A DNA stretch of 64,000 bases, from NCBI GenBank assembly GCA_973851085.1, contig OZ316775.1:12710001-12774000 (forward strand). Direction: 5' to 3'. The notes below the pieces were generated by a model, which saw nothing but the letters and a program-made list of their open reading frames with translations, ran no database searches and had not been told where the DNA came from. Source of the DNA: Ptychomitrium polyphyllum (Eukaryota). Below, in pieces: positions 1,638-49,545 of this stretch. The translations under genes and the position numbers were made by a program. Each line of letters starts with the position of its first letter. Position 1 is the stretch's first letter.

Positions 1638-2065
1638 TATTGAAGAAATGCAACAAAGCTAGTACAACAAGCAAGAAGAGAGAGAGCAAAGTTGCAACAA
1701 GAGAAGTGTGGAGCAAGATGACTCGCACTTCCAAAACCCCTTTACTTATACTTGAGAGTCATCCACCAAAATGTGCCACTTGGCGGCCATGCATTTGCCT
1801 CTACTATATGAGTGACATGTGGCGGCTAACCCTAACCCTAGCCGCCGTACCCGCCACCCTAACCCTAACGGCCGCCCTAACCCTAATGGCCGCCCTAACC
1901 TTAGCCGCCATACAAAACCCTTGTTGCCTTTTCTTAACCCTAGCCTCCATATCCCCTATAGCCTCTTTCCTCACACTCCTTTGACCATTAGCAACATATC
2001 ATGCTCTAAGTCTACACAAGGATACTTCAACTAGGATTACTTTATATGTTTCACACTTTGCAACA
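1638..2065 (-). repeat. LTR L1 (428 bp), 3' LTR of E1
   Basis: TATTG...CAACA on +. PPT on the right, TSD GTAAT on the left. Confidence 0.95.
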
Positions 2066-2083
2066 CTCCCACTTTGCTACTGG

Positions 2084-5000
2084 TCAAAGGGCCTTTAGTC
2101 CAATTGACCTCGTGAACAACTGGTGTCTATCTCTTACCAATGCTTTTGTCAACAAATCAGCAAGCATGCCCTCTGTTGCACAATACCTCATATCTATCAC
2201 TCCATCTTCAATCTTCTCTCTTATGAAGTGATGTTGGATGTCAATGTGCTTTGTTCGTGAGTGATGCTTGGGATTCTTGGCAAAGGCAAGACATCCTTGA
2301 TTGTCACACATGATGGGCGTTGCACCCAGTTGTACAAGTCCAATGTCCTCCAAGAGTTGCCTCAGCCACATTGCTTCCATTGCACCATGACTTGCCGCCA
2401 TGTACTCCGCCTCCATGGTTGACCTTGCAATTGTGGGTTGCCTCTTGCAGTTCCAAGAGATGGCTCCCACTCCAACAAAGAACACATACCCCGTTGTGGA
2501 GCGCCTATCATTTGCATCTCCAGCCCAATCCGCATCACAAAATCCCTGCAACTCAATGTTATCACCTCCCAGACACAACACAAAGTCCAAGGTGCCCTTC
2601 AAGTACCTCATGATCCTCTTGATGGTTGCCCAGTGCATGGGGCCGGCCTTGGACATGTGTTGGCTCACAACACTCACCGAAAACGCAAGATCAAACCTTG
2701 TGCCCACCATGGCATACATGAGGCATCCCACTCCGGCCTTGTATGGAACGCCTTGCATTTCGCCCTCCACTTGAGCATACTCCTCATCACTTAGCTTCAT
2801 CAACCTCAAGTTTGCCTCCAAAGGCGTTCCCACTGGCTTGCAGTCTTCCATGTTGAATCGCTTCAACACCTCTTCCATGTACTTCTTCTGGCTCATGGTG
2901 ATGGTCCTCTTTGCACGATCCCTCACAAATTCCACTCCAAGACAATAGTGTAACTCGCCCAAATCACTCATCTCAAACTCCTGCTCTAATTTGGCCTTCA
3001 ACCACTCTAGCTTCTCCGAAAGGTTGGCCAACATGATCAAGTCATCCACATAGAGAATCACAATCAACAAGAATTCCATGGTCTGCATCACATACAAGGA
3101 ATGATCCGCCTCACTTCTCACAAACCCTTCCTTCCTAAAGAATGCATCAATGCGTTGGTACCATGCCCTTGGCGATTGCTTAAGCCCGTACAAGGCCTTC
3201 TTCAACTTGCAAACAAGGTGTTCCAAGCCTTCATGTACAAACCCTGGAGGTTGCTCCATGTAGATGTCTTCTTCCAACTCTCCATTTAGAAAGGCCGTCT
3301 TCACATCCATCTGGTGCACCTCCAAGTCCATTGCCGCAGCTATGGCCAAGATGGTCCTAATGGTGGTGAACTTGGCCACAGGTGCAAAGGTCTCATTGAA
3401 GTCCACACCAGCAACTTGTGAGTATCCTTTGGCAACTAGCCTTACCTTGTGCCTCACAATTGCACCCGAAGCATCCCTCTTGCTTCTAAACACCCACTTG
3501 CAACCTATACAAGAACGATTTGGAGGAAGTTGAGTCAAGTGCCATGTGCCATTGTCCATGAGCGACTTGTACTCCTCTTCCATGGCCTTCTCTCAGTTCA
3601 TTGCATCCGTGGACTTCAAGGCATCGCACATAGTTAAAGGATCAACGAGGAGGGCAACATTGGCATGTTCTGCACTCACTTTTGGAAAGATGTGGTTCTT
3701 CCACCATTCACCAAGTGGCCTCCTCTCCCTCATGGGATACCTCCTTCCACTCATTGCAGGCCTCTCTTCTTGTAATGCATCCCCTTCTCCTTCACTTAGA
3801 GGATTATCCTCCTCACTTGGATGAAGATGCTCACCATCATCTTGTGAGGCTCCTCTGCTGGTCTTAAGGGTGGAAGTCGCCTTGCTCTCCCCCTCCATTG
3901 TTCCTTCACCTCCATCCACATCTCCACCTTCTTCCTTGGTTGTTGAGGATGTGTCCACAATCACACCATTACTCCCACTTGGACACATCTCCAAGTGCTC
4001 ACAAGCACTCTTGTGCTCCAAGAACTCAACATCACGACTCTTGATGATCTTCTTGCTCTCCACACACATCAACCTATATGCTTTGCTGCCCTCACAATAA
4101 CCAAAGAACACACACTTTGTACCCTTTGCATCAAGCTTGGACCTCATGCAATCTGGAACCTTTGCATATGCAAGGCATCCGAAGGTCCTCATGTGTGAAA
4201 CACAAGGCTTCTTACCACTCCAAGCTTCTTCAGGGGTCATGGATGCAAGGGCACTTGTGGGGCACCTATTTCTTGTGTACACCGCATTCACCACCGCTTC
4301 CGCCCACAACTCATGTCCAAGATGTTGGGCATGAAGCATGCTCCTCGCCATCTCCACAATGGTGCGATTTGCCCTCTCAGCAACTCCATTTTGTTGTGGA
4401 GTGTATGGAGTGGAGGTTTGCCTTGCAATGCCTTCACTCCTCAACAAGTCATCAAAACATTTGGATAAGAACTCACCACCATTATCCGAACGCAACACCT
4501 TGATCTTGGACTCACATTGCTTCTCCACGAGCGCCTTGAACTCCTTGAATCTTGCGAAGCATTCGCTCTTGGCCTTGAGGATGAACACCCATACTTTCCT
4601 CGAATAATCATCAATGAAGGTGAGGAAGTACCTTGCTCCCCCGATGGATGGAGTCCTCATAGGCCCGCACACGTCGGAATGCACAATCTCCAACAATTTG
4701 CTTGCACGACTTGCCACTCCACTTGGAAACGACGCCCTTTGCTGCTTGCCTTGGATGCAAGCCTCACAAGCAAGTTCCTTGGCCTTGTGGCATGTTGTAC
4801 CGATATCCAAGCCGCTTACCATGCCTTGGAGCTCCTTCATGGCCTTCACATTGAGGTGCCCAAGGCGCCCATGCCATATGCCAAACTTGTCTTGGTCTTC
4901 AATGAACTCAGCAAAGGCCGCCACCTCCACTCCATTCACCTTCTTACACTTGATGAAGTACAAGTTGCCATCCCTCAACCCCGTGGCAACCACATCTCCA

Positions 5001-6124
5001 CTCAATGACTTCACAATACATCCATTCACATTGAAATGAGCCACAAACCCTCCCATCACAAGTTTGCTCACCGAAAGGAGGTTGGACTTCATCTTTGGCA
5101 CATGCAGCACGTCCTTGAAGGTGATCCTCTTGGTCTTGCCTCCCACAACAACCTCCACCACAATGGAACCCATTCCAATGGCCTCCACCACGCCATTGTC
5201 ACCCATGAGCACACTAGTGGCTGCAATTGCCTCATAAGTATGGAATGAGCACTTGTAAGGAGTCATGTGCTTTGTGGCGCCCGAATCAACTATCCACTTG
5301 GATAGGGCCGCCATAGGCGCCCCCTCGCTTGCCATGAAGGCACAATCACCACCTCCAAGGTGGTCCATCACATGGTTGGCATCCTCCCTCTCTCCTTTCT
5401 TGGCCTTGAAGCAATTTCGAGCAAAATGACCTGGTTTTCCACACACAAAGCACGTTCGAAGATTTGGACGTTGATTAGAATAGGTGGCCTTGCCTTGCCT
5501 CGAGAAGAGGGCGGAGTCCTCACTTGAATTCGCCTTCTCCTTCCTCTTGGTGTCCTCGTGGCTCAATCTCGCCGTCACATAGTCCATGGTGAGGTCCTTG
5601 ATGGGAATGGACTCCAAGGCCACTATGAGATAGCTATAGGACTCCGGCAAGCTCATGAGCAATGTAATCACAACATCCGACTCCTCCAATGGCTTGTCCA
5701 CAATGGCAACTTGCCTTGCAAGGGCCTTCAACTTGTTAACATGCGCCATGAGGTCGTGGCCTTCTTCCATCTTGCAGTTCAAGAGCTTCCTCTTTGTGAA
5801 GATGATGTTGGAGAGGTTCTTGCTCTCATAGATGTTGCAAAGCGTCTTCCACGCTTCTGCTGGTCCAGTGCAAGAGATGATATGGGCGAAGTTGGCATCA
5901 TCAAGGTTGGTGGCAAGGATGCCAAAAGCCTTCTTCTCACGACGCTAGAACTCCTTCCTCTCCTTTGCATCTGCCGACAATGGTGGAGCAACCTCACTCT
6001 CATCTATGATGTCCCAAAGGTCCATAGAAGCCAACGAGAGCTCCATCCTAACCTTCCATTGGTAGAAGTTATCACCATGAAACTTTTGAATGACCCTAAG
6101 ACCTTCACCTTCACTCGAAGCCAT
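2084..6124 (-). pseudogene. Copy E1 gag-pol, full length with two nonsense codons (Q60stop at 5945-5947, W844stop at 3593-3595)
   Basis: Colinear with the 1346-aa ORF. The ORF track is split into 3593-5782 and 2084-3583. Confidence 0.92.
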
Positions 6125-6560
6125 GGCTTAAGAAGAGTGGTAACAAAACAAACCTTCAAACGAACTATTTCCTTGACTCCTATGCTTCTCACAAGTCTTC
6201 ACAACTATGAGTCCCAAGAAAAACCTTTCAACTCACTATGTCCACTCAATGAGCACACATATCAATGATCTCACAAGATAACAACACCAAGCACAACAAA
6301 ATGGTGTTAGGAAGCTTGAATCCAACAAAGACACTATCAAGGTCTTATCACCACTCAAAACAACTCACTATCCAAGGAGTTTCAACAACCACAACCCTAC
6401 TAGAGCTCAAGAAACATCAAACCAAGCACCTACATGTACAAAACTTCAAAGTTAGGCGTTTCTGACTATATCTTCAAAAACTATGAAGTGATCTTGCTCC
6501 ACACAAGAACAACAACTACAAAACACTTCAAGCTACTTCAAAAGGCACAACTAAGAGTGA

Positions 6561-6574
6561 GTGGGCCCATAACC
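6561..6574 (-). other. Primer-binding site GGTTATGGGCCCAC (half tRNA-iMet type); also at 8501, 9840, 14542, 22763, 24576, 29516, 37825, 42627, 47430
   Basis: Directly abuts the LTR end. The + strand GTGGGCCCATAACC equals the anticodon-arm sequence of plant initiator tRNA-Met. Confidence 0.9.
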
Positions 6575-7002
6575 TATTGAAGAAATGCAACAAAGCTAGT
6601 ACAACAAGCAAGAAGAGAGAGAGCAAAGTTGCAACAAGAGAAGTGTGGAGCAAGATGACTCGCACTTCCAAAACCCCTTTACTTATACTTGAGAGTCATC
6701 CACCAAAATGTGCCACTTGGCGGCCATGCATTTGCCTCTACTATATGAGTGACATGTGGCGGCTAACCCTAACCCTAGCCGCCGTAGCCGCCACCCTAAC
6801 CCTAACGGCCGCCCTAACCCTAATGGCCGCCCTAACCTTAGCCGCCATACAAAACCCTTGTTGCCTTTTCTTAACCCTAGCCTCCATATCCCCTATAGCC
6901 TCTTTCCTCACACTCCTTTGACCATTAGCAACATATCATGCTCTAAGTCTACACAAGGATACTTCAACTAGGATTACTTTATATGTTTCACACTTTGCAA
7001 CA
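6575..7002 (-). repeat. LTR L2 (428 bp), 5' LTR of E1; outer end joined to PR-region sequence of E2 (AGTTT...)
   Basis: PBS on the left; internal sequence instead of PPT on the right. Confidence 0.95.
6756..6847 (-). promoter_or_regulatory. U3 minisatellite (~18-bp units) with six TTAGGG hexamers and four AGCCGCC GCC boxes (shown for L2; similar in the other young LTRs)
   Basis: CCCTAACCCTAA dimers alternate with (A/G)GCCGCC. A candidate TATA (TATAAGTA, - strand) lies at 6680-6687. Function is inferred. Confidence 0.6.
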
Positions 7003-8066
7003 AGTTTGCTCACCGAAAGGAGGTTGGACTTCATCTTTGGCACATGCAGCACGTCCTTGAAGGTGATCCTCTTGGTCTTGCCTCCCACAACAACCTCCAC
7101 CACAATGGAACCCATTCCAATGGCCTCCACCACGCCATTGTCACCCATGAGCACACTAGTGGCTGCAATTGCCTCATAAGTATGGAATGAGCACTTGTAA
7201 GGAGTCATGTGCTTTGTGGCGCCCGAATCAACTATCCACTTGGATAGGGCCGCCATAGGCGCCCCCTCGCTTGCCATGAAGGCACAATCACCACCTCCAA
7301 GGTGGTCCATCACATGGTTGGCATCCTCCCTCTCTCCTTTCTTCGCCTTGAAGCAATTTCGAGCAAAATGACCTGGTTTTCCACACACAAAGCACGTTCG
7401 AAGATTTGGACGTTGATTAGAATAGGTGGCCTTGCCTTGCCTCGAGAAGAGGGCGGAATCCTCACTTGAATTCGCCTTTTCCTTCCTCTTGGTGTCCTCG
7501 TGGCTCAATCTCGCCGTCACATAGTCCATGGTGAGGTCCTTGATGGGAATGGACTCCAAGGCCACTATGAGATAGCTATAGGACTCCGGCAAGCTCATGA
7601 GCAATGTAATCACAACATCCGACTCCTCCAATGGCTTGTCCACAATGGCAACTTGCCTTGCAAGGGCCTTCAACTTGTTAACATGCGCCATGAGGTCGTG
7701 GCCTTCTTCCATCTTGCAGTTCAAGAGCTTCCTCTTTGTGAAGATGATGTTGGAGAGGTTCTTGCTCTCATAGATGTTGCAAAGCGTCTTCCACGCTTCT
7801 GCTGGTCCAGTGCAAGAGATGATATGGGCGAAGTTGGCATCATCAAGGTTGGTGGCAAGGATGCCAAAAGCCTTCTTCTCACGACGCTGGAACTCCTTCC
7901 TCTCCTTTGCATCTGCCGACAATGGTGGAGCAACCTCACTCTCATCTATGATGTCCCAAAGGTCCATAGAAGCCAACGAGAGCTCCATCCTAACCTTCCA
8001 TTGGTAGAAGTTATCACCATGAAACTTTTGAATGACCCTAAGACCTTCACCTTCACTCGAAGCCAT
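7003..8066 (-). pseudogene. Copy E2: gag and part of protease only, ending at LTR L2
   Basis: ORF 6936-8066 with zinc knuckle and DSG protease motif, reading into an LTR-derived tail. Confidence 0.9.
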
Positions 8067-8514
8067 GGCTTAAGAAGAGTGGTAACAAAACAAACCTTCA
8101 AACGAACTATTTCCTTGACTCCTATGCTTCTCACAAGTCTTCACAACTATGAGTCCCAAGAAAAACCTTTCAACTCACTATGTCCACTCAATGAGCACAC
8201 ATATCAATGATCTCACAAGATAACAACACCAAGCACAACAAAATGGTGTTAGGAAGCTTGAATCCAACAAAGACACTATCAAGGTCTTATCACCACTCAA
8301 AACAACTCACTATCCAAGGAGTTTCAACAACCACAACCCCAAGAGCTTAAGAAACATCAAACCAAGCACCTACATGTGCAAAACCTCAAAGTTAGGCGTT
8401 TCTAACTCTATCTTCAATAACTATGAAGTGATCTTGCTCCACACAAGAACAACAACTACAACACACTTCAAGCTACTTCAAAAGGCACAACTAAGAGTGT
8501 GTGGGCCCATAACC

Positions 8515-8942
8515 TATTGAAGAAATGCAACAAAGCTAATACAACAAGCAAGAAGAGAGAGAGCAAAGTTGCAACAAGAGAAGTGTGGAGCAAGATGACT
8601 CGCACTTCCAAAACCCCTTTACTTATACTTGAGAGTCATCCACCAAAATGTGCCACTTGGCGGCCATGCATTTGCCTCTACTATATGAGTGACATGTGGC
8701 GGCTAACCCTAACCCTAGCCGCCGTAGCCGCCACCCTAACCCTAACGGCCGCCCTAACCCTAATGGCCGCCCTAACCTTAGCCGCCATACAAAACCCTTG
8801 TTGCCTTTTCTTAACCCTAGCCTCCATATCCCCTATAGCCTCTTTCCTCACACTCCTTTGACCATTAGCAACATATCATGCTCTAAGTCTACACAAGGAT
8901 ACTTCAACTAGGATTACTTTATATGTTTCACACTTTGCAACA
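8515..8942 (-). repeat. LTR L3 (428 bp), 5' LTR of E2; flanked by TSD GTAAT 8943-8947
   Basis: PBS on the left; GTAAT and resumed E0 gag on the right. Confidence 0.95.
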
Positions 8943-9403
8943 GTAATCACAACATCCGACTCGTCCAATGGCTTGTCCACAATGGCAACTTGCCTTGCAA
9001 GGGCCTTCAACTTGTTCACATGCGCCTTGAGGTCGTGGCCTTCTTCCATCTTGCAGTTCAAGAGCTTCCTCTTTGTGAAGATGATGTTGGAGAGGTTCTT
9101 GCTCTCATAGATGTTGCAAAGCGTCTTCCACGCTTCTGCCGGTCCAGTGCAAGAGATGATATGGGCGAAGTTGGCATCATCAAGGTTGGTGGCAAGGATG
9201 CCAAAAGCCTTCTTCTCACGACGCTGGAACTCCTTCCTCTCCTTTGCATCTGCCGACAATGGTGGAGCAACCTCACTCTCATCTATGATGTCCCAAAGGT
9301 CCATAGAAGCCAACGAGAGCTCCATCCTAACCTTCCATTGGTAGAAGTTATCACCATGAAACTTTTGAATGACCCTAAGACCTTCACCTTCACTCGAAGC
9401 CAT
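8943..9403 (-). pseudogene. Copy E0, upstream part: N-terminal gag
   Basis: Continues exactly from 1637 once 1638-8942 and one TSD copy are removed. Confidence 0.9.
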
Positions 9404-15001: not shown

Positions 15002-17859
15002 TCAAAGGGCCTTTAATCCAATTGACCTCGTCAACAACTGGTGTCTATCTCTTACCAATGCTTTTGTCAACAAATCAGCAAGCATGCCCTCTGTTGCACA
15101 ATACCTCATATCTATCACTCCATCTTCAATCTTCTCTCTTATGAAGTGATGTTGGATGTCAATGTGCTTTGTTCGTGAGTGATGCTTGGGATTCTTGGCA
15201 AAGGCAAGACATCCCTGATTGTCACACATGATGGGCGTTGCACCCAGTTGTACAAGTCCAATGTCCTCCAAGAGTTGCCTCAGCCACATTGCTTCCATTG
15301 CACCATGACTTGCCGCCATGTACTCCGCCTCCATGGTTGACCTTGCAATTGTGGGTTGCCTCTTGCAGTTCCAAGAGATGGCTCCCACTCCAACAAAGAA
15401 CACATACCCCGTTGTGGAGCGCCTATCATTTGCATCTCCAGCCCAATCCGCGTCACAAAATCCCTGCAACTCAATGTTATCACCTCCCAGACACAACACA
15501 AAGTCCAAGGTGCCCTTCAAGTACCTCATGATCCTCTTGATGGTTGCCCAGTGCATGGGGCCGGCCTTGGACATGTGTTGGCTCACAACACTCACCGAAA
15601 ACGCAAGATCAAACCTTGTGCCCACCATGGCATACATGAGGCATCCCACTCCGGCCTTGTATGGAACGCCTTGCATTTCGCCCTCCACTTGAGCACACTC
15701 CTCATCACTTAGCTTCATCAACCTCAAGTTTGCCTCCAAAGGCGTTCCCACTGGCTTGCAGTCTTCCATGTTGAATCGCTTCAACACCTCTTCCATGTAC
15801 TTCTTCTGGCTCATGGTGATGGTCCTCTTTGCACGATCCCTCACAAATTCCACTCCAAGACAATAGTGTAACTCGCCCAAATCACTCATCTCAAACTCCT
15901 GCTCTAATTTGGCCTTCAACCACTCTAGCTTCTCCGAAAGGTTGGCCAACATGATCAAGTCATCCACATAGAGAATCACAATCAACAAGAATTCCATGGT
16001 CTGCATCACATACAAGGAATGATCCGCCTCACTTCTCACAAACCCTTCCTTCCTAAAGAATGCATCAATGCGTTGGTACCATGCCCTTGGCGATTGCTTA
16101 AGCCCGTACAAGGCCTTCTTCAACTTGCAAACAAGGTGTTCCAAGCCTTCATGTACAAACCCTGGAGGTTGCTCCATGTAGATGTCTTCTTCCAACTCTC
16201 CATTTAGAAAGGCCGTCTTCACATCCATCTGGTGCACCTCCAAGTCCATTGCTGCAGCTATGGCCAAGATGGTCCTAATGGTGGTGAACTTGGCCACAGG
16301 TGCAAAGGTCTCATTGAAGTCCACACCAGCAACTTGTGAGTATCCTTTGGCAACTAGCCTTGCCTTGTGCCTCACAATTGCACCCGAAAAATCCCTCTTG
16401 CTTCTAAACACCCACTTGCAACCTATGCAAGAACGATTTGGAGGAAGTTGAGTCAAGTGCCATGTGCCATTGTCCATCAGCGACTTGTACTCCTCTTCCA
16501 TGGCCTTCTCCCAGTTCATTGCATCCGTGGACTTCAAGGCATCGCACATAGTTAAAGGATCAACGAGGAGGGCAACATTGGCATGTTCTGCACTCACTTT
16601 TGGAAAGATGTGGTTCTTCCACCATTCACCAAGTGGCCTCCTCTCCCTCATGGGATACCTCCTTCCACTCATTGCAGGCCTCTCTTCTTGTAATGCATCC
16701 CCTTCTCCTTCACTTAGAGGATTATCCTCCTCACTTGGATGAAGATGCTCACCATCATCTTGTGAGGCTCCTCTGCTGGTCTTAAGGGTGGAAGTCGCCT
16801 TGCTCTCCCCCTCCATTGTTCCTTCACCTCCATCCACATCTCCACCTTCTTCCTTGGTTGTTGTGGAGGATGTGTCCACAATCACACCATTACTCCCACT
16901 TGGACACATCCCCAAGTGCTCACAAGCACTCTTGTGCTCCAAGAACTCAACATCACGACTCTTGATGATCTTCTTGCTCTCCACACACATCAACCTATAT
17001 GCTTTGCTGCCCTCACAGTAACCCAAGAACACACACTTTGTACCCTTTGCATCAAGCTTGGACCTCATGCAATCTGGAACCTTTGCATTTGCAAGGCATC
17101 CGAAGGTCCTCATGTGTGAAACACAAGGCTTCTTACCACTCCAAGCTTCTTCGGGGGTCATGGATGCAAGGGCACTTGTGGGGCACCTATTTCTTGTGTA
17201 CACCGCATTCACCACCGCTTCCGCCCACAACTCATGTCCAAGATGTTGGGCATGAAGCATGCTCCTCGCCATCTCCACAATGGTGCGATTTACCCTCTCA
17301 GCAACTCCATTTTGTTGTGGAGTGTATGGAGTGGAGGTTTGCCTTGCAATGCCTTCACTCCTCAACAAGTCATCAAAACATTTGGATAAGAACTCACCAC
17401 CATTATCCGAACGCAACACCTTGATCTTGGACTCACATTGCTTCTCCACAAGCGCCTTGAACTCCTTGAATCTTGCAAAGCATTCGCTCTTGGCCTTGAG
17501 GATGAACACCCATACTTTCCTCGAATAATCATCAATGAAGGTGAGGAAGTACCTTGCTCCCCCGATGGATGGAGTCCTCATAGGCCCGCACACGTCGGAA
17601 TGCACAATCTCCAACAATTTGCTTGCACGACTTGCCACTCCACTTGGAAACGACGCCCTTTGCTGCTTGCCTTGGATGCAAGCCTCACAAGCAAGTTCCT
17701 TGGCCTTGTGGCATGTTGTACCGAGATCCAAGCCGCTTACCATGCCTTGGAGCTCCTTCATGGCCTTCACATTGAGGTGCCCAAGGCGCCCATGCCATAT
17801 GCCAAACTTGTCTTGGTCTTGCCTCCCACAACAACCTCCACCACAATGGAACCCATTCC
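15002..17859 (-). pseudogene. Copy E4, downstream part (IN-RT-RH; 238-bp deletion junction at 17811-17820), split by E5
   Basis: Ends at TSD ATTCC 17855-17859. Confidence 0.9.
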
Positions 17860-18269
17860 TATTGAAGAAATGCAACAAAGCTAGTACAACAAGCAAGAAG
17901 AGAGAGAGCAAAGTTGCAACAAGAGAAGTGTGGAGCAAGATGACTCGCACTTCCAAAACCCCTTTACTTATACTTGAGAGTCATCCACCAAAATGTGCCA
18001 CTTGGCGGCCATGCATTTGCCTCTACTATATGAGTGACATGTGGCGGCTAACCCTAACCCTAGCCGCCGGAGCCGCCACCCTAACCCTAACGGCCGCCCT
18101 AACCCTAATGGCCATACAAAACCCTTGTTGCCTTTTCTTAACCCTAGCCTCCATATCCCCTATAGCCTCTTTCCTCACACTCCTTTGACCATTAGCAACA
18201 TATCATGCTCTAAGTCTACACAAGGATACTTCAACTAGGATTACTTTATATGTTTCACACTTTGCAACA

Positions 18270-18279
18270 CTCCCACTTT
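18270..18279 (-). other. Polypurine tract AAAGTGGGAG (representative)
   Basis: Immediately precedes the 3' LTR TG, only ~8 bp after the pol stop. Confidence 0.8.
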
Positions 18280-18287
18280 GCTACTGG

Positions 18288-21200
18288 TCAAAGGGCCTTT
18301 AGTCCAATTGACCTCGTCAACAACTGGTGTCTATCTCTTACCAATGCTTTTGTCAACAAATCAGCAAGCATACCCTCTGTTGCACAATACCTCATATCTA
18401 TCACTCCATCTTCAATCTTCTCTCTTATGAAGTGATGTTGGATGTCAATGTGCTTTGTTCGTGAGTGATGCTTGGGATTCTTGGCAAAGGCAAGACATCC
18501 TTGATTGTCACACATGATGGGCGTTGCACCCAGTTGTACAAGTCCAATGTCCTCCAAGAGTTGCCTCAGCCACATTGCTTCCATTGCACCATGACTTGCC
18601 GCCATGTACTCCGCCTCCATGGTTGACCTTGCAATTGTGGGTTGCCTCTTGCAGTTCCAAGAGATGGCTCCCACTCCAACAAAGAACACATACCCCGTTG
18701 TGGAGCGCCTATCATTTGCATCTCCAGCCCAATCCGCATCACAAAATCCCTGCAACTCAATGTTATCACCTCCCAGACACAACACAAAGTCCAAGGTGCC
18801 CTTCAAGTACCTCATGATCCTCTTGATGGTTGCCCAGTGCATGGGGCCGGCCTTGGACATGTGTTGGCTCACAACACTCACCGAAAACGCAAGATCAAAC
18901 CTTGTGCCCACCATGGCATACATGAGGCACCCCACTCCGGCCTTGTATGGAACGCCTTGCATTTCGCCCTCCACTTGAGCATACTCCTCATCACTTAGCT
19001 TCATCAACCTCAAGTTTGCCTCCAAAGGCGTTCCCACTGGCTTGCAGTCTTCCATGTTGAATCGCTTCAACACCTCTTCCATGTACTTCTTCTGGCTCAT
19101 GGTGATGGTCCTCTTTGCACGATCCCTCACAAATTCCACTCCAAGACAATAGTGTAACTCGCCCAAATCACTCATCTCAAACTCCTGCTCTAATTTGGCC
19201 TTCAACCACTCTAGCTTCTCCGAAAGGTTGGCCAACATGATCAAGTCATCCACATAGAGAATCACAATCAACAAGAATTCCATGGTCTGCATCACATACA
19301 AAGAATGATCCGCCTCACTTCTCACAAACCCTTCCTTCCTAAAGAATGCATCAATGCGTTGGTACCATGCCCTTGGCGATTGCTTAAGCCCGTACAAGGC
19401 CTTCTTCAACTTGCAAACAAGGTGTTCCAAGCCTTCATGTACAAACCCTGGAGGTTGCTCCATGTAGATGTCTTCTTCCAACTCTCCATTTAGAAAGGCC
19501 GTCTTCACATCCATCTGGTGCACCTCCAAGTCCATTGCCGCAGCTATGGCCAAGATGGTCCTAATGGTGGTGAACTTGGCCACAGGTGCAAAGGTCTCAT
19601 TGAAGTCCACACCAGCAACTTGTGAGTATCCTTTGGCAACTAGCCTTGCCTTGTGCCTCACAATTGCACCCGAAGCATCCCTCTTGGTTCTAAACACCCA
19701 CTTGCAACCTATGCAAGAACGATTTGGAGGAAGTTGAGTCAAGTGCCATGTGCCATTGTCCATCAGCGACTTGTACTCCTCTTCCATGGCCTTCTCCCAG
19801 TTCATTGCATCCGTGGACTTCAAGGCATCGCACATAGTTAAAGGATCAACGAGGAGGGCAACATTGGCATGTTCTGCACTCACTTTTGGAAAGATGTGGT
19901 TCTTCCACCATTCACCAAGTGGCCTCCTCTCCCTCATGGGATACCTCCTTCCACTCATTGCAGGCCTCTCTTCTTGTAATGCATTCCCTTCTCCTTCACT
20001 TAGAGGATTATCCTCCTCACTTGGATGAAGATGCTCACCATCATCTTGTGAGGCTTCTCTGCTGGTCTTAAGGGTGGAAGTCGCCTTGCTCTCCCCCTCC
20101 ATTGTTCCTTCACCTCCATCCACATCTCCACCTTCTTCCTTGGTTGTTGAGGATGTGTCCACAATCACACCATTACTCCCACTTGGACACATCTCCAAGT
20201 GCTCACAAGCACTCTTGTGCTCCAAGAACTCAACATCACGACTCTTGATGATCTTCTTGCTCTCCACACACATCAACCTATATGCTTTGCTGCCCTCACA
20301 ATAACCAAAGAACACACACTTTGTACCCTTTGCATCAAGCTTGGACCTCATGCAATCTGGAACCTTTGCATATGCAAGGCATCCGAAGGTCCTCATGTGT
20401 GAAACACAAGGCTTCTTACCACTCCAAGCTTCTTCAGGGGTCATGGATGCAAGAGCACTTGTGGGGCACCTATTTCTTGTGTACACCGCATTCACCACCG
20501 CTTCCGCCCACAACTCATGTCCAAGATGTTGGGCATGAAGCATGCTCCTCGCCATCTCCACAATGGTGCGATTTGCCCTCTCAGCAACTCCATTTTGTTG
20601 TGGAGTGTATGGAGTGGAGGTTTGCCTTGCAATGCCTTCACTCCTCAACAAGTCATCAAAACATTTGGATAAGAACTCACCACCATTATCCGAACGCAAC
20701 ACCTTGATCTTGGACTCACATTGCTTCTCCACGAGCGCCTTGAACTCCTTGAATCTTGCGAAGCATTCGCTCTTGGCCTTGAGGATGAACACCCATACTT
20801 TCCTCGAATAATCATCAATGAAGGTGAGGAAGTACCTTGCTCCCCCGATGGATGGAGTCCTCATAGGCCCGCACACGTCGGAATGCACAATCTCCAACAA
20901 TTTGCTTGCACGACTTGCCACTCCACTTGGAAACGACGCCCTTTGCTGCTTGCCTTGGATGCAAGCCTCACAAGCAAGTTCCTTGGCCTTGTGGCATGTT
21001 GTACCGATATCCAAGCCGCTTACCATGCCTTGGAGCTCCTTCATGGCCTTCACATTGAGGTGCCCAAGGCGCCCATGCCATATGCCAAACTTGTCTTGGT
21101 CTTCAATGAACTCAGCAAAGGCCGCCACCTCCACTCCATTCACCTTCTTACACTTGATGAAGTACAAGTTGCCATCCCTCAACCCCGTGGCAACCACATC

Positions 21201-22328
21201 TCCACTCAATGACTTCACAATACATCCATTCACATTGAAATGAGCCACAAACCCTCCCATCACAAGTTTGCTCACCGAAAGGAGGTTGGACTTCATCTTT
21301 GGCACATGCAGCACGTCCTTGAAGGTGATCCTCTTGGTCTTGCCTCCCACAACAACCTCCACCACAATGGAACCCATTCCAATGGCCTCCACCACGCCAT
21401 TGTCACCCATGAGCACACTAGTGGCTGCAATTGCCTCATAAGTATGGAATGAGCACTTGTAAGGAGTCATGTGCTTTGTGGCGCCCGAATCAACTATCCA
21501 CTTGGATAGGGCCGCCATAGGCGCCCCCTCGCTTGCCATGAAGGCACAATCACCACCTCCAAGGTGGTCCATCACATGGTTGGCATCCTCCCTCTCTCCT
21601 TTCTTGGCCTTGAAGCAATTTCGAGCAAAATGACCTGGTTTTCCACACACAAAGCACGTTCGAAGATTTGGACGTTGATTAGAATAGGTGGCCTTGCCTT
21701 GCCTCGAGAAGAGGGCGGAGTCCTCACTTGAATTCGCCTTCTCCTTCCTCTTGGTGTCCTCGTGGCTCAATCTCGCCGTCACATAGTCCATGGTGAGGTC
21801 CTTGATGGGAATGGACTCCAAGGCCACTATGAGATAGCTATAGGACTCCGGCAAGCTCATGAGCAATGTAATCACAACATCCGACTCCTCCAATGGCTTG
21901 TCCACAATGGCAACTTGCCTTGCAAGGGCCTTCAACTTGTTAACATGCGCCATGAGGTCGTGGCCTTCTTCCATCTTGCAGTTCAAGAGCTTCCTCTTTG
22001 TGAAGATGATGTTGGAGAGGTTCTTGCTCTCATAGATGTTGCAAAGCGTCTTCCACGCTTCTGCTGGTCCAGTGCAAGAGATGATATGGGCGAAGTTGGC
22101 ATCATCAAGGTTGGTGGCAAGGATGCCAAAAGCCTTCTTCTCACGACGCTGGAACTCCTTCCTCTCCTTTGCATCTGCCGACAATGGTGGAGCAACCTCA
22201 CTCTCATCTATGATGTCCCAAAGGTCCATAGAAGCCAACGAGAGCTCCATCCTAACCTTCCATTGGTAGAAGTTATCACCATGAAACTTTTGAATGACCC
22301 TAAGACCTTCACCTTCACTAGAAGCCAT
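18288..22328 (-). CDS. Copia gag-pol polyprotein, 1346 aa (E5)
   Basis: Zn knuckle CFVCGKPGHFARNC; protease WIVDSGAT; IN WHGRLGH..CEAC, HSDVCGP, RSDNGGEF, NGVAER; RT QMDVKTAFLNG, LYGLKQ, YVDD; RNase H DADWAG, EAEY, CDNQ, ADLLTKAL. Confidence 0.97.
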   Translation of the reverse strand: MASSEGEGLRVIQKFHGDNFYQWKVRMELSLASMDLWDIIDESEVAPPLSADAKERKEFQRREKKAFGILATNLDDANFAHIISCTGPAEAWKTLCNIYESKNLSNIIFTKRKLLNCKMEEGHDLMAHVNKLKALARQVAIVDKPLEESDVVITLLMSLPESYSYLIVALESIPIKDLTMDYVTARLSHEDTKRKEKANSSEDSALFSRQGKATYSNQRPNLRTCFVCGKPGHFARNCFKAKKGEREDANHVMDHLGGGDCAFMASEGAPMAALSKWIVDSGATKHMTPYKCSFHTYEAIAATSVLMGDNGVVEAIGMGSIVVEVVVGGKTKRITFKDVLHVPKMKSNLLSVSKLVMGGFVAHFNVNGCIVKSLSGDVVATGLRDGNLYFIKCKKVNGVEVAAFAEFIEDQDKFGIWHGRLGHLNVKAMKELQGMVSGLDIGTTCHKAKELACEACIQGKQQRASFPSGVASRASKLLEIVHSDVCGPMRTPSIGGARYFLTFIDDYSRKVWVFILKAKSECFARFKEFKALVEKQCESKIKVLRSDNGGEFLSKCFDDLLRSEGIARQTSTPYTPQQNGVAERANRTIVEMARSMLHAQHLGHELWAEAVVNAVYTRNRCPTSALASMTPEEAWSGKKPCVSHMRTFGCLAYAKVPDCMRSKLDAKGTKCVFFGYCEGSKAYRLMCVESKKIIKSRDVEFLEHKSACEHLEMCPSGSNGVIVDTSSTTKEEGGDVDGGEGTMEGESKATSTLKTSREASQDDGEHLHPSEEDNPLSEGEGNALQEERPAMSGRRYPMRERRPLGEWWKNHIFPKVSAEHANVALLVDPLTMCDALKSTDAMNWEKAMEEEYKSLMDNGTWHLTQLPPNRSCIGCKWVFRTKRDASGAIVRHKARLVAKGYSQVAGVDFNETFAPVAKFTTIRTILAIAAAMDLEVHQMDVKTAFLNGELEEDIYMEQPPGFVHEGLEHLVCKLKKALYGLKQSPRAWYQRIDAFFRKEGFVRSEADHSLYVMQTMEFLLIVILYVDDLIMLANLSEKLEWLKAKLEQEFEMSDLGELHYCLGVEFVRDRAKRTITMSQKKYMEEVLKRFNMEDCKPVGTPLEANLRLMKLSDEEYAQVEGEMQGVPYKAGVGCLMYAMVGTRFDLAFSVSVVSQHMSKAGPMHWATIKRIMRYLKGTLDFVLCLGGDNIELQGFCDADWAGDANDRRSTTGYVFFVGVGAISWNCKRQPTIARSTMEAEYMAASHGAMEAMWLRQLLEDIGLVQLGATPIMCDNQGCLAFAKNPKHHSRTKHIDIQHHFIREKIEDGVIDMRYCATEGMLADLLTKALVRDRHQLLTRSIGLKAL

Positions 22329-23186
22329 GGCTTAAGAAGAGTGGTAACAAAACAAACCTTCAAACGAACTATTTCCTTGACTCCTATGCTTCTCACAAGT
22401 CTTCACAACTATGAGTCCCAAGAAAAACCTTTCAACTCACTATGTCCACTCAATGAGCACACATATCAATGATCTCACAAGATAACAACACCAAGCACAA
22501 CAAAATGGTGTTAGGAAGCTTGAATCCAACAAAGACACTATCAAGGTCTTATCACCACTCAAAACAACTCACTATCCAAGGAGTTTCAACAACCACAACC
22601 CCAAGAGCTTAAGAAACATCAAACCAAGCACCTACATGTGCAAAACCTCAAAGTTAGGCGTTTCTAACTCTATCTTCAATAACTATGAAGTGATCTTGCT
22701 CCACACAAGAACAACAACTACAAAACACTTCAAGCTACTTCAAAAGGCACAACTAAGAGTGTGTGGGCCCATAACCTATTGAAGAAATGCAACAAAGCTA
22801 GTACAACAAGCAAGAAGAGAGAGAGCAAAGTTGCAACAAGAGAAGTGTGGAGCAAGATGACTCGCACTTCCAAAACCCCTTTACTTATACTTGAGAGTCA
22901 TCCACCAAAATGTGCCACTTGGCGGCCATGCATTTGCCTCTACTATATGAGTGACATGTGGCGGCTAACCCTAACCCTAGCCGCCGTAGCCGCCACCCTA
23001 ACCCTAATGGCCGCCCTAACCCTAATGGCCATACAAAACCCTTGTTGCCTTTTCTTAACCCTAGCCTCCATATCCCCTATAGCCTCTTTCCTCACACTCC
23101 TTTGACCATTAGCAACATATCATGCTCTAAGTCTACACAAGGATACTTCAACTAGGATTACTTTATATGTTTCACACTTTGCAACA

Positions 23187-24139
23187 ATTCCAATGGCCTC
23201 CACCACGCCATTGTCACCCATGAGCACACTAGTGGCTGCAATTGCCTCATAAGTATGGAATGAGCACTTGTAAGGAGTCATGTGCTTGGTGGCGCCCGAA
23301 TCAACTATCCACTTGGACAAGGCCGCCATAGGCGCCCCCTCGCTTGCCATGAAGGCACAATCACCACCTCCAAGGTGGTCCATCACATGGTTGGCATCCT
23401 CCCTCTCTCCTTTCTTCGCCTTGAAGCAATTTCGAGCAAAATGACCTGGTTTTCCACACACAAAGCGCATTCGAAGATTTGGACGTTGATTAGAATAGGT
23501 GGCCTTGCCTTGCCTCGAGAAGAGGGCGGAGTCCTCACTTGAATTCGCCTTCTCCTTCCTCTTGGTGTCCTCGTGGCTCAATCTCGCCGTCACATAGTCC
23601 ATGGTGAGGTCCTTGATGGGAATGGACTCCAAGGCCACTATGAGATAGCTATAGGACTCCGGCAAGCTCATGAGCAATGTAATCACAACATCCGACTCGT
23701 CCAATGGCTTGTCCACAATGGCAACTTGCCTTGCAAGGGCCTTCAACTTGTTCACATGCGCCATGAGGTCGTGGCCTTCTTCCATCTTGCAGTTCAAGAG
23801 CTTCCTCTTTGTGAAGATGATGTTGGAGAGGTTCTTGCTCTCATAGATGTTGCAAAGCGTCTTCCACGCTTCTGCCGGTCCAGTGCAAGAGATGATATGG
23901 GCGAAGTTGGCATCATCAAGGTTGGTGGCAAGGATGCCAAAAGCCTTCTTCTCACGACGCTGGAACTCCTTCCTCTCCTTTGCATCTGCCGACAATGGTG
24001 GAGCAACCTCACTCTCATCTATGATGTCCCAAAGGTCCATAGAAGCCAACGAGAGCTCCATCCTAACCTTCCATTGGTAGAAGTTATCACCATGAAACTT
24101 TTGAATGACCCTAAGACCTTCACCTTCACTCGAAGCCAT
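23187..24139 (-). pseudogene. Copy E4, upstream part (gag and start of protease)
   Basis: Resumes at ATTCC; carries the RMRFVC knuckle variant. Confidence 0.9.
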
Positions 24140-29957: not shown

Positions 29958-31156
29958 TTTGCAACACTCGCCTCTTGCGCCACGTGCACCCTCGTGAAGC
30001 TTATTTGGTACAAGTTGCCTTCACGTGGTGCTCTTGCAACCACCTCGCCATTTGGTGCATGCACAATGCATCCATCCTTGTTGAAGTTCACCTTCAACCC
30101 ACTCGACACTAACTTGCTCACCGAAAGCAAGTTTGCTTTCAACATAGGCACATGGCGGGCATCATGGATGCGAATGCGCTTTGATTGCCCTCTCACCATG
30201 GTCTCCACAACAATAGAACCCACGCCAATGGCTTCTACGATGCTATCATCTCCCATGTGTACATTTTGTGAAGAGCTTACCTCATAGCTGTGGAATGCCT
30301 CCTTGTGAGGAGTCACGTGCTTGGTGGCTCCCAAATCCATGATCCACTTGCAGAGGCCTTTGAATGGATCACCAACATGAGTTACAAATGCGCAGTCATC
30401 AACAATGTGAGCACTCTCCTTCTCCTTGTTCTTGGCCTTGAAACAAAACCTTGCAATTTGATCGGCTTTGCCACAATGGTAGCATGTCCTTGTATCCTTG
30501 GTGAAAGATGCATTGCCTCCCTTGCCTTGACGTGATACCATTGCCGCATCATCACCTTGGAGTGCCTTCTCCTTCCTCTTGGTGAACTCATGCATCAATC
30601 TTGCCGTTACCACCTCCAAAGTGAGTTCCTTCATAGGTATTGTTTCCAATGCGATGATCAAGAACTCATACAAAGGGGGCAAACTATCAAGCAAAGTCAT
30701 GACAATATCCTCATCCCTCATGGGCGAATCCAAGCAAGCTAATTGGTCGGCCAAAGCCTTGACCTTGTTAATATGGTCTAACAAGTCATCACTCTCCAAC
30801 ATCTTGCACGTGAGGAACCTTCGCCTTATGAAGAGGATGTTGGACAAGCTCCTAGTCTCGTGGATGTTGCAAAGGGTGTTCCATGCTTGCGCGGGTCCTT
30901 TGCAACTCTTGATGTGGGCAAGTTGGCTATCCACCAAGTTGAGTCCAATGACTAACATGGCCTTCTTCACACGCTTTTTGTACTCCTTGATGGTCTTGGG
31001 GTCGGCATTAGAAGGTGGAGCCTCCTCAGTGTCCTCCACAATCTCCCAAAGGTCCATGGAATCCAACACCATCTCCATTTTGAACTTCCAAAGATTAAAG
31101 TTCTCGCCATTGAACTTGTCAACCACTCGAGCACTCTCACCCTCCAAGGATGCCAT
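29958..31156 (-). pseudogene. Family B copia gag-protease fragment (related but clearly divergent)
   Basis: MASLEGESARVVDKFNGENF...; knuckle CYHCGKADQIARFC (His lost); protease WIMDLGAT (Ser to Leu); truncated by L9. Confidence 0.9.
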
Positions 31157-31789
31157 TGTGCACAAGTACACTCAATCACCTCAAAACGGTCCTTTTAGGC
31201 CCAAATGTGCACTTATTTACTCCTATCAACGCCAAATGAGCCCTACCAACGCTCAATCAACCTCAAATGCTTCCTCACCACTCAATTGGGCTTGAAATGT
31301 GCACTTTTGCACCCTCTCCACTCAAATCGGCCCTCAAGTGCTTCCAACAATGGACAAATGCCCTATACACGCACTAACACTCAAATGTGCACTTATGCAC
31401 CTCAAACACACCAATCAGCCTTCAATGGCTTCACATACGCATCCAAAGCACTCAAGCTCTCAAAGCACAAGCTTCAAATACTAACAAGCATCAATTGTGC
31501 ACAAACGCACCTCACATGAAACTCAAATACTAAATGCAAAGCTTACAAGCCTATAACGATACTTCCACTGCTCTAAACTTCTCCAAACGCCTCCAAATGG
31601 GAACTTGTGCACCACCAAAACTTGTAACGCCTCCAAGCACCTCCAAATCAGCCCTTGTGGCTCTCCAAATGCTCAAAGGCACCAAAATTGCACAAATGCA
31701 CATGCAACAAAAGACTCTCAAGATGCTCTACCAAACACTAACGCAATCAAATCTCAACTCACACAACAAGCATGTGTGGGTCCATAACC

Positions 31790-32021
31790 TAATGAAATAC
31801 ACAAAGTATGCGAACAATGCTTGGAATGAGAGTAATCATCCCATTCCTTGCTCTGCCCTTTATTCTCTTCAAACCACATCAGTCTTTCAATCAATATGGG
31901 ATAAATCTTCGACCCACTCCAAACAATATGGGTTCATTCTAATGTTCTTCATTTCAACTAATAACCACAATCCCATACTAACTCTAAGACTACGAGCAAT
32001 CTAATGCTCTATTCTCTAACA
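31790..32021 (-). repeat. Putative 5' LTR of family B (232 bp, TGTTA...CATTA), with PBS GGTTATGGACCCAC at 31776-31789
   Basis: Bounded by a half-tRNA PBS (1 mismatch) and a sharp switch to family A sequence. Only one copy is in the window. Confidence 0.7.
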
Positions 32022-32226: not shown

Positions 32227-32789
32227 GCATCACTCACAAACAAAGCACATTGACATCCAACATCACTTCATAAGAGAGAAGATTGAAGATGGAGTGATAG
32301 ATATGAGGTATTGTGCAACAGAGGGCAATGCTTGCTGATTTGTTGACAAAAGCACTGGTAAGGGATAGACACCAGTTGTTGACGAGGTCAATTGGATTAA
32401 AGGCCTTTGACCAGTAGAAGTTATTGTTGCAAAGTGTGAAACCATATAAAGTAATCCTAGTTGAAGTATCCTTGTGTAGACTTAGAGCATGATATGTTGC
32501 TAATGGTCAAAGGAGTGTGAGGAAAGAGGCTATAGGGGATATGGAGGCTAGGGTTAAGAAAAGGCAACAAGGGTTTTGTATGGCGGCTAGGGTTAGGGCG
32601 GCCATTAGGATTAGGGCGGCCGTTAGGGTTAGGGTGGCGGCTACGGTGGCTAGGGTTAGGGTGGATGACTCTGAAGTATAAGTAAGGGGTTTTAGAAGTG
32701 GGAGTCAGCTTGCTCCACACTTCTATTGTTGCAACATTGCTCGCTCTCTTCTTGCTTGTTGTACTAGCCTTTGCTGCATTTCTTCAATA
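32227..32789 (+). mobile_element. Inverted family A 3' end: RNase H tail plus internally deleted LTR L10 (32425-32789); error-rich
   Basis: TGTTGC...TCAATA on +. Scattered single-base indels next to the gap. Confidence 0.75.
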
Positions 32790-32899
32790 CTTTAATCCAA
32801 TTGACCTCGTCAACAACCGGTGTCTATCTCTTACCAATGCTTTTGTTAACAAATCAGCAAGCATGCCCTCTGTTGCACAATACCTCATATCTATCACTC

Positions 32900-33329
32900 T
32901 ATTGAAGAAATACAACAAAGCTAGTACAACAAGCAAGAAGAGAGAGAGCAAAGTTGCAACAAGAGAACTGTGGAGCAAGATGACTCCCACTTCCAAAACC
33001 CCTTTACTTATACTTGAGAGTCATCCACCAAAATGTGCCACCTGGAGGCCATGCATTTGCTTCCACTATATGAGTGACATGTGGCGGCTAACTCTAACCC
33101 TTGCCGCCGTAGCCGCCACCCTAACCCTAACGGCCGCCCTAACCCTAATGGCCGCCCTAACCTTACAAAACCCATACAAAACCCTTGTTGCCTTTTCTTA
33201 ACCCTAGCCTCCATATCCCCTATAGCCTCTTTCCTCACACTCCTTTGACCATTAGCAACATATCATGCTCTAAGTCTACACAAGGATACTTCAACTAGGA
33301 TTACTTTATATGTTTCACACTTTGCAACA
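32900..33329 (-). repeat. LTR L11, 3' LTR of E7
   Basis: PPT on the right; RNase H fragment 32790-32899 on the left. Confidence 0.88.
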
Positions 33330-33347
33330 CTCCCACTTTGCTACTGG

Positions 33348-36300
33348 TCAAAGGGCCTTTAGTCCAATTGACCTCGTCAACAACTGGTGTCTATCTCTTA
33401 CCAATGCTTTTGTCAACAAATCAGCAAGCATACCCTCTGTTGCACAATACCTCATATCTATCACTCCATCTTCAATCTTCTCTCTTATGAAGTGATGTTG
33501 GATGTCAATGTGCTTTGTTCGTGAGTGATGCTTGGGATTCTTGGCAAAGGCAAGACATCCTTGATTGTCACACATGATGGGCGTTGCACCCAGTTGTACA
33601 AGTCCAATGTCCTCCAAGAGTTGCCTCAGCCACATTGCTTCCATTGCACCATGACTTGCCGCCATGTACTCCGCCTCCATGGTTGACCTTGCAATTGTGG
33701 GTTGCCTCTTGCAGTTCCAAGAGATGGCTCCCACTCCAACAAAGAACACATACCCCGTTGTGGAGCGCCTATCATTTGCATCTCCAGCCCAATCCGTGTC
33801 ACAAAATCCCTGCAACTCAATGTTATCACCTCCCAGACACAACACAAAGTCCAAGGTGCCCTTCAAGTACCTCATGATCCTCTTGATGGTTGCCCAGTGC
33901 ATGGGGCCGGCCTTGGACATGTGTTGGCTCACAACACTCACCGAAAACGCAAGATCAAACCTTGTGCCCACCATGGCATACATGAGGCACCCCACTCCGC
34001 CCTTGTATGGAACGCCTTGCATTTCGCCCTCCACTTGAGCATACTCCTCATCACTTAGCTTCATCAACCTCAAGTTTGCCTCCAAAGGCGTTCCCACTGG
34101 CTTGCAGTCTTCCATGTTGAATCGCTTCAACACCTCTTCCATGTACTTCTTCTGGCTCATGGTGATGGTCCTCTTTGCACGATCCCTCACAAATTCCACT
34201 CCAAGACAATAGTGTAACTCGCCCAAATCACTCATCTCAAACTCCTGCTCTAATTTGGCCTTCAACCACTCTAGCTTCTCCGAAAGGTTGGCCAACATGA
34301 TCAAGTCATCCACATAGAGAATCACAATCAACAAGAATTCCATGGTCTGCATCACATACAAGGAATGATCCGCCTCACTTCTCACAAACCCTTCCTTCCT
34401 AAAGAATGCATCAATGCGTTGGTACCATGCCCTTGGCGATTGCTTAAGCCCGTACAAGGCCTTCTTCAACTTGCAAACAAGGTGTTCCAAGCCTTCATGT
34501 ACAAACCCTGGAGGTTGCTCCATGTAGATGTCTTCTTCCAACTCTCCATTTAGAAAGGCCGTCTTCACATCCATCTGGTGCACCTCCAAGTCCATTGCCG
34601 CAGCTATGGCCAAGATGGTCCTAATGGTGGTGAACTTGGCCACAGGTGCAAAGGTCTCATTGAAGTCCACACCAGCAACTTGTGAGTATCCTTTGGCAAC
34701 TAGCCTTGCCTTGTGCCTCACAATTGCACCCGAAGCATCCCTCTTGGTTCTAAACACCCACTTGCAACCTATGCAAGAACGATTTGGAGGAAGTTGAGTC
34801 AAGTGCCATGTGCCATTGTCCATCAGCGACTTGTACTCCTCTTCCATGGCCTTCTCCCAGTTCATTGCATCCGTGGACTTCAAGGCATCGCACATAGTTA
34901 AAGGATCAACGAGGAGGGCAACATTGGCATGTTCTGCACTCACTTTTGGAAAGATGTGGTTCTTCCACCATTCACCAAGTGGCCTCCTCTCCCTCATGGG
35001 ATACCTCCTTCCACTCATTGCAGGCCTCTCTTCTTGTAATGCATTCCCTTCTCCTTCACTTAGAGGATTATCCTCCTCACTTGGATGAAGATGCTCACCA
35101 TCATCTTGTGAGGCTCCTCTGCTGGTCCTAAGGGTGGAAGTCGCCTTGCTCTCCCCCTCCATTGTTCCTTCACCTCCATCCACATCTCCACCTTCTTCCT
35201 TGGTTGTTGAGGATGTGTCCACAATCACACCATTACTCCCACTTGGACACATCTCCAAGTGCTCACAAGCACTCTTGTGCTCCAAGAACTCAACATCACG
35301 ACTCTTGATGATCTTCTTGCTCTCCACACACATCAACCTATATGCTTTGCTGCCCTCACAATAACCAAAGAACACACACTTTGTACCCTTTGCATCAAGC
35401 TTGGACCTCATGCAATCTGGAACCTTTGCATATGCAAGGCATCCGAAGGTCCTCATGTGTGAAACACAAGGCTTCTTACCACTCCAAGCTTCTTCAGGGG
35501 TCATGGATGCAAGGGCACTTGTGGGGCACCTATTTCTTGTGTACACCGCATTCACCACCGCTTCCGCCCACAACTCATGTCCAAGATGTTGGGCATGAAG
35601 CATGCTCCTCGCCATCTCCACAATGGTGCGATTTGCCCTCTCAGCAACTCCATTTTGTTGTGGAGTGTATGGAGTGGAGGTTTGCCTTGCAATGCCTTCA
35701 CTCCTCAACAAGTCATCAAAACATTTGGATAAGAACTCACCACCATTATCCGAACGCAACACCTTGATCTTGGACTCACATTGCTTCTCCACGAGCGCCT
35801 TGAACTCCTTGAATCTTGCGAAGCATTCGCTCTTGGCCTTGAGGATGAACACCCATACTTTCCTCGAATAATCATCAATGAAGGTGAGGAAGTACCTTGC
35901 TCCCCCGATGGATGGAGTCCTCATAGGCCCGCACACGTCGGAATGCACAATCTCCAACAATTTGCTTGCACGACTTGCCACTCCACTTGGAAACGACGCC
36001 CTTTGCTGCTTGCCTTGGATGCAAGCCTCACAAGCAAGTTCCTTGGCCTTGTGGCATGTTGTACCGATATCCAAGCCGCTTACCATGCCTTGGAGCTCCT
36101 TCATGGCCTTCACATTGAGGTGCCCAAGGCGCCCATGCCATATGCCAAACTTGTCTTGGTCTTCAATGAACTCAGCAAAGGCCGCCACCTCCACTCCATT
36201 CACCTTCTTACACTTGATGAAGTACAAGTTGCCATCCCTCAACCCCGTGGCAACCACATCTCCACTCAATGACTTCACAATACATCCATTCACATTGAAA

Positions 36301-37388: not shown

Positions 37389-37838
37389 GGCTTAAGAAGA
37401 GAGGTAACAAAACAAACCTTCAAACGAACTATTTCCTTGACTCCTATGCTTCTCACAAGTCTTCACAACTATGAGTCCCAAGAAAAACCTTTCAACTCAC
37501 TATGTCCACTCAATGAGCACACATATCAATGATCTCACAAGATAACAACACCAAGCACAAGAAAATGGTGTTAGGAAGCTTGAATCCAACAAAGACACTA
37601 TCAAGGTCTTATCACCACTCAAAGCAACTCACTATCCAAGGAGTTTCAACAACCACAACCCTACTAGAGCTTAAGAAACATCAAACCAAGCACCTATATG
37701 TGCAAAACTTCAAAGTTAGGCGTTTCTAACTATATCTTCAATAACTATGAAGTGATCTTGCTCCACACAAGAACAACAACTACAAAACACTTCAAGCTAC
37801 TTCAAAAGGCACAACTAAGAGTGAGTGGGCCCATAACC

Positions 37839-49527: not shown

Positions 49528-49545
49528 CCAATAGCAAAGTATGAG

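Follow-up and report, generated by a model that had tools for sequence, protein, structure and literature searches.

The window analysed here, a stretch of 64,000 nucleotides of contig OZ316775.1 (12,710,001 to 12,774,000 of the forward strand), contains on its minus strand, at 17860–23186, an intact and recently inserted Ty1/copia retrotransposon belonging to what we call family A. The element is 5327 bp long, with two long terminal repeats (LTRs) of 410 bp each and 4507 bp of internal sequence, and it shows the make-up by which this superfamily is recognized: the domain order gag-PR-INT-RT-RH between two LTRs, a primer binding site (PBS) along with a polypurine tract (PPT), and a 5-bp target site duplication (TSD). 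The DDE triad of its integrase is intact, and the best sequence match of that integrase in the Protein Data Bank is the yeast Ty1 integrase (7z0h_W, E 4.6e-16). We take the PBS (GGTTATGGGCCCAC) to correspond to half of an initiator methionine tRNA (tRNA-iMet), with a presumed match to the anticodon arm of that tRNA. The LTRs differ by two substitutions, which corresponds to an age of ~0.27 million years at 9e-9 per site per year, a rate borrowed from another moss (bioRxiv 10.1101/2023.05.19.541548).

Table 1. Features of the family-A element and of the cluster around it, in window positions
Feature	Positions	Strand	Remarks
TSD ATTCC, left copy	17855..17859		5-bp overlap on empty site, which lies within a same-family copy (protease region)
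3' LTR	17860..18269	-	410 bp; sense TGTTG...TTCAATA; U5 TA end joined to target
PPT GCAAAGTGGGAG	18270..18281	-	Adjoins the TG of the 3' LTR
Single gag-PR-INT-RT-RH open reading frame	18288..22328	-	1346 amino acids (P0001); integrase D484, D547, E583
PBS GGTTATGGGCCCAC	22763..22776	-	Half-tRNA-iMet type; no spacer after TA
5' LTR	22777..23186	-	410 bp; differs from the 3' LTR by 2 substitutions; CCCTA(A/G) motifs
TSD ATTCC, right copy	23187..23191		
Composite family-A insertion	1633..8947	-	Three LTRs (LTR-internal-LTR-partial internal-LTR); TSD GTAAT
Family B fragment	29958..32021	-	gag-PR (57% amino acid identity to family A); long 5' untranslated region; PBS GGTTATGGACCC adjoining CATTA at 31790; LTR truncated
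Inverted family-A LTR	32425..32789	+	TGTTG...CAATA; beside 100-N gap
Tandem array of family-A units	32900..47871	-	Units share LTRs; left junction without TSD
Older inverted family-A copy	47872..49889	+	LTR 40-49 substitutions from others; TA end meets host DNA

Termini and target junctions

The termini of the element are not the canonical TG...CA. All 15 family-A LTRs in the window end in TTCAATA when read in the sense direction, in agreement with the TA end that a preliminary description of this DNA had given for all 15, and because exceptions to the canonical form have been published, such ends do not exclude membership of the Ty1/copia superfamily. The TGTTG start given in that description holds for 14 of the 15 LTRs, the remaining one (9854–10281) starting with GGTTG. 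Only the unique 5' (U5) end of the family is TA; at the unique 3' (U3) end, CA-3' is retained on the minus strand. Both ends have been joined to target DNA with a 5-bp stagger.

The two junctions read ATTCC/TATTG (17855–17864) and CAACA/ATTCC (23182–23191), exactly as first described, and ATTCC is a true TSD: when both flanks are placed on the empty site, which is found in an intact internal copy, their overlap is exactly 5 bp. The element thereby shows the mark of noncanonical TGTA Copia elements, a TSD directly next to TG...TA ends. A second pair put forward earlier, GTAAT (1633–1637 and 8943–8947), is likewise a true TSD with an exact 5-bp overlap on its empty site, but it brackets a composite and not a simple element. 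The flanks at 32900 and 38266 (CACTC and ATCTT) have an overlap of −1 and hence no TSD. Fourteen substitutions separate their LTRs, which makes two insertions joined by recombination the likely origin. The PBS follows directly on TA at 10 of the 15 LTRs, and target DNA does so at the remaining five. Many of the 15 lie 0–7 substitutions apart within duplicated segments and are therefore not 15 independent events; they provide five distinct junctions between U5 and target, all of them TA.

The TA end might still be an artefact, either because the true end is a CA three bases further inside (TTCA/ATA) or because TA is an assembly error. A CA is indeed present at positions −5/−4 of the U5 end, and the window has both an assembly gap and tandem copies. 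A scan of up to 6 bp to each side of the element ends found a 5-bp TSD solely at the TG/TA boundary (two other matches being 4-mers nested in it) and none at any TG...CA boundary, TTCA/ATA included. The ATA is kept at the five distinct target junctions of the window and in 24–29 contigs of sequencing run X1, the PBS starts right after TA, and relatives of the family agree. Within run X1, 29 contigs with unrelated, AT-rich flanks are joined at 22777 (24 by a narrower count, plus nine at 22776). Among the 380 contigs of this run on 22745–22815, other letters reach at least 1% solely at 22779 and 22784, and none, a CA variant included, does so at 22777–22778. Fourteen contigs of run X2, which bears another organism label and comes from another study, agree with the TA end. 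A CA end in other insertions, which the preliminary description had named as contrary to its proposal, did not reach 1% in run X1. We regard the artefact, refuted by the TSD scan and the run X1 junctions, as having next to no chance of being correct. An origin of TA from residual tRNA primer was also rejected, as TA is present in both LTRs and would not pair with the tRNA.

Relatives of the element and the variation of their ends

The relatives compared are 76 metagenome loci, 22 of which carry a half-tRNA PBS (24 matches, that of L048 likely being due to chance). The dinucleotide before these matches is TA in 15, CA in seven, GA in one and CG in one, so that a survey of termini across related families, as proposed earlier, returns a TA majority accompanied by other ends. 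A raw tally over 50 rows, some of which repeat a site, gave TA 35, AA 8, AC 3, CA 2 and GA 2; in the eight AA rows and one of the two GA rows a TA lies two bases further, in two of the AC rows a CA lies one base further, the third AC row is spurious and the second GA row is degraded. Pattern searches yielded 30 matches and no relatives among viral contigs, and 61 loci with a PPT-LTR pattern among genome contigs, where one (L124) is a Copia relative forming a further TG...TA family and the rest are chance matches. L124 (1–952) comes from a Streptomyces assembly, as a contig of 952 bp; it consists of a moss-type Copia fragment (RNase H-PPT-LTR-PBS) with TG...TA ends and is likely contamination.

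In a FastTree phylogeny, families A and B fall together with L001, L002, L019, L008 and nine L004-type loci. The support for this clade is 0.993, and its members are 48–71% identical to P0001 over the domain columns. The U5 end is TA in 14 of the 15 end-labelled rows of this clade. The CATTA end given earlier for family B (31790) is adjoined by a PBS, which is its sole basis, the other end and a TSD not being visible. L001 and L002 read PPT/TATTG...CAATA/PBS, with TA at both ends. The sister of family A, L008 (support 0.925), belongs to an LTR family with TG...CA ends, which terminates in CA in all four copies seen to their end (L005, L012, L018 and L030). For the tree labels, L005 was left out, its PBS and LTR coming from a different nested family, and L008 was added to represent that family; L033 and L041 are unlabelled. 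A second, separate clade holds L050 (TG...CA, TSD AGGAG), L054 (TG...GA) and L075 (TG...TA, TSD TTTTC), three sisters with PBS GGTTATGAGCCC and a variable U5 end.

One way to account for the main clade, and the strong form of the preliminary proposal, is a switch of its integrase to a preference for TA at U5, with the CA families being rare revertants or served by other integrases. Such a switch fits the 14 of 15 labelled rows and the lack of a CA variant at or above 1% in run X1, but the same integrase must also join the CA-3' U3 end of family A, where 14 of 15 LTRs start with TG, and the sister L008 belongs to a TG...CA family; we consider it very improbable. The earlier proposal that this integrase lineage accepts a TA end keeps its core, in that a TA-3' U5 end is joined with a 5-bp TSD and the trait is that of a lineage and not of a single family. 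TA appears to be tolerated and not required, because family A retains CA-3' at U3 and the family of L008 and L005 has TG...CA ends.

Placement in a moss lineage and the surrounding cluster

An exon at 51981–52517 matches RIN2 with 86% identity in Ceratodon and 72% in Physcomitrium, so the host is a moss. The Bryco lineage of REXdb comprises six moss elements of 5039–5564 bp with a half-tRNA-Met PBS and a 5-bp TSD (PMC6317226), and RLC5 of Physcomitrium and Sphagnum, a clustered, putative centromeric Copia, has been assigned to it. The element at 17860–23186 shares with Bryco/RLC5 the moss host, the PBS type, the 5-bp TSD, a length of ~5.0–5.6 kb and the arrangement as a single-family cluster. 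On these features it is likely a Bryco/RLC5 element. It differs in its TA ends, which do not figure in the accessible parts of the published descriptions; a literature search, with subscription papers and bioRxiv supplements outside its reach, brought up no paper describing TA ends for Bryco/RLC5. The REXdb prediction of de novo elements demanded TG/CA termini (PMC6317226). The prediction that tools based on TG...CA would miss the family applies to that survey and to strict TGCA settings, but not to LTR_retriever, whose seven noncanonical motifs include TGTA (bioRxiv 10.1101/137141).

Positions 1–49889 are free of genes and hold a cluster in which copies of a single Copia family are nested or arranged in tandem, most of them in the same orientation. 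All of its visible insertion sites, the outermost excepted, lie within Copia sequence. The cluster resembles the putative centromeric RLC5 clusters of mosses, for which a single dense cluster on each chromosome, at a centromere marked by CENH3 and low recombination, would be expected; the one seen here extends from base 1 to 49889, with a gene as its neighbour. Much of 1–47871 consists of nested and tandemly duplicated copies that are ~99% alike. Three copies that are otherwise tandem duplicates (at 1097, 13109 and 17820) share an internal deletion of 230 bp lying between short repeats (GTCTTGGTC), which indicates segmental amplification after insertion. The ATCTT site is also the starting point of two further units of internal sequence and 5' LTR within 38267–47871, for which an assembly effect, unequal exchange and an autointegration-type circle are possible explanations; PMC11899658 treats tandem LTR structures of the kind seen in the window. 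At 32022–32900 an inverted family-A copy with an altered PPT and a deleted LTR of 365 bp lies across the 100-N gap, within the LTR of family B, and the local assembly is uncertain.

Telomere-like CCCTA(A/G) motifs are present in all family-A LTRs as part of an 18-bp repeat (window 18063–18130), with seven motifs per 410-bp LTR versus one in the 4507 bp of internal sequence. Similar motifs are found in LTRs of the L004-type group, with L006, L015, L016 and L024 among the carriers named. About 2 kb from the edge of the cluster lies a multi-exon gene for a RIN2-type E3 ubiquitin ligase (~51970–57400, minus strand).

A probable pyrimidine-A rule for the integrase

The TG...TA motif itself is not new, and its earlier characterization as a reported exception is borne out by onion AcCOPIA1 (as cited in PMC5659011), by a lotus TGTA group of 941 copies (PMC9804982) and by the LTR_retriever motif list. 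Family A shares with the onion and lotus elements the Copia superfamily, TG...TA ends, a short LTR and a preserved TSD. The published TGTA elements, as far as their accessible descriptions go, are from angiosperms and mostly genic, low-copy or recently derived, whereas family A resides in a nested, gene-free moss cluster, has a half-tRNA PBS and represents what is the majority state of its clade. AtRE1 (TA...TA), TARE1 (TA...CA) and Tos17 (TG...GA), listed in bioRxiv 10.1101/137141, are likewise mobile Copia elements in which the penultimate base is altered at one joined end or at both, and L001 and L002 are of the same type as AtRE1. These are single angiosperm families, and the change in TARE1 is at U3 whereas that of family A is at U5. 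Ty1 has the same type of DDE integrase, and its blunt, unprocessed complementary DNA (cDNA) ends (PMC8487063) serve as a model for family A; unlike family A, all 60 Ty1 LTRs end in CA, which is the minimal requirement in vitro (PMC8487063).

It could be argued that no special integrase is needed, if Copia integrases generally tolerate a change of the penultimate base at one end and TA has spread on several independent occasions through mutation pressure and drift. In lotus, eight non-TGCA end types exist, the third position is the least constrained and end types intermingle on the tree (PMC9804982); the sisters L075, L054 and L050 end in TA, GA and CA, respectively, and CHG sites are mutable. 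The same explanation sits poorly with TA as the majority state across families only ~50–70% identical, two of which have TA at both ends. Non-TGCA elements make up ~1% of plant LTR elements (PMC9804982), and pure drift would not predict such a concentration. We judge this explanation unlikely, though less so than a switch to TA preference.

We instead think it probable that this recent and intact moss Ty1/copia insertion, which likely belongs to Bryco/RLC5 and has a TA-3' U5 end, has an integrase that accepts either CA or TA. Acceptance of TA is suggested by the junctions. The persistence of TA across families 50–70% identical, together with viable TA...TA and TG...CA families, argues for an integrase that reads pyrimidine-A, and the rule is likely old and clade-wide and not specific to TA.

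As to how such ends might arise, DNA synthesis primed by the half tRNA-iMet would begin with the last base of the LTR, and the resulting blunt cDNA end could be joined without 3' processing, as in Ty1. An ancestral C at the U5 end would have stood in a CAG (CHG) context created by the first G of the PBS, where it may have been methylated and deaminated to T in the 5' LTR. The change would then be passed to both LTRs of all progeny, since the established scheme of reverse transcription copies a U5 change in the 5' LTR into both progeny LTRs. If a T-R-T-T-G end with position 2 relaxed is what the clade's integrase recognizes, TA ends could spread and persist across families, and repeated insertion into its own kind with LTR-LTR recombination could build a cluster of 50 kb or more. 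Deamination at CHG is a plausible origin of TA. Among the window copies, C>T changes occur at 9/130 CHG sites versus 63/2042 CHH sites (p = 0.036) and at 18/204 CG sites, and the observed/expected ratio of CAG is 0.26.

Several points weigh against this account. The C>T changes in the CAG class alone (3/42) are too few to test. Run X1 is possibly the source sample of the window, in which case it adds insertions but no independent organism, and runs X7 and X8 do not cover the U5 end. The tree rests on a query-anchored alignment with missing data and its inner nodes are weak, so either order, CA to TA or reversion, may apply. Its nine L004-type rows are close kin, which reduces 14 of 15 rows to ~6 of 7 families (7 of 8 with L124). 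L001 and L002 each have one collapsed LTR, leaving their U3 TA without a TSD check; the CA label of L008 is taken from other copies of its LTR family and not from its own end. No TSD was found for TA-ended elements of the main clade outside the window, where copies are old and nested. In vitro, the Ty1 integrase needed CA, TA not being among the probes described in the accessible text (PMC8487063), and acceptance of TA by the present integrase is proposed from sequence.

A possible lead to the relaxed rule is an alanine at position E+2 of helix alpha4 (ERANR; Ala585). Of 295 integrase columns, it is the sole one that sets all 14 rows of the two relaxed-end clades apart from the 16 remaining rows, a comparison that involves two independent clades, five comparison rows that are proteins without DNA and with assumed ends, and several CA labels read across a spacer of 1–3 bases. 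We offer it as a candidate residue and a lead only. Its link to end type is weakened by Closterium P0057 and L033, which also have Ala at E+2 and whose ends are unlabelled. Among the alpha4 residues of human immunodeficiency virus integrase named as DNA contacts (Gln148, Glu152, Asn155, Lys156 and Lys159), Met154, the match of Ala585, does not appear in the accessible text of PMC2794180, and that of PMC6784120 gives no residue contacting the C of CA.

More broadly, and tentatively, a moss centromere-associated Copia clade may have followed a relaxed YA-3' rule since early moss evolution, owing to its integrase, and may be mostly TA-ended and under-counted by TG...CA surveys; we hold this wider claim to be possible but doubtful. 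The literature search described above, with the same limits, found no earlier report of a clade with a TA majority at U5 that also includes TA...TA and TG...CA families. A young, intact, single-frame element with TG...TA, TA...TA and TG...CA relatives constitutes a natural series for asking why CA is nearly invariant, and whether noncanonical ends reflect an old property of the integrase or recent mutation. If true, an ancient YA-3' rule would be a case of the integrase-end co-evolution left open by the lotus study (PMC9804982). Annotation of moss repeats and centromeres needs relaxed end motifs, as counts of intact Bryco-type elements and LTR ages are otherwise likely to be biased.

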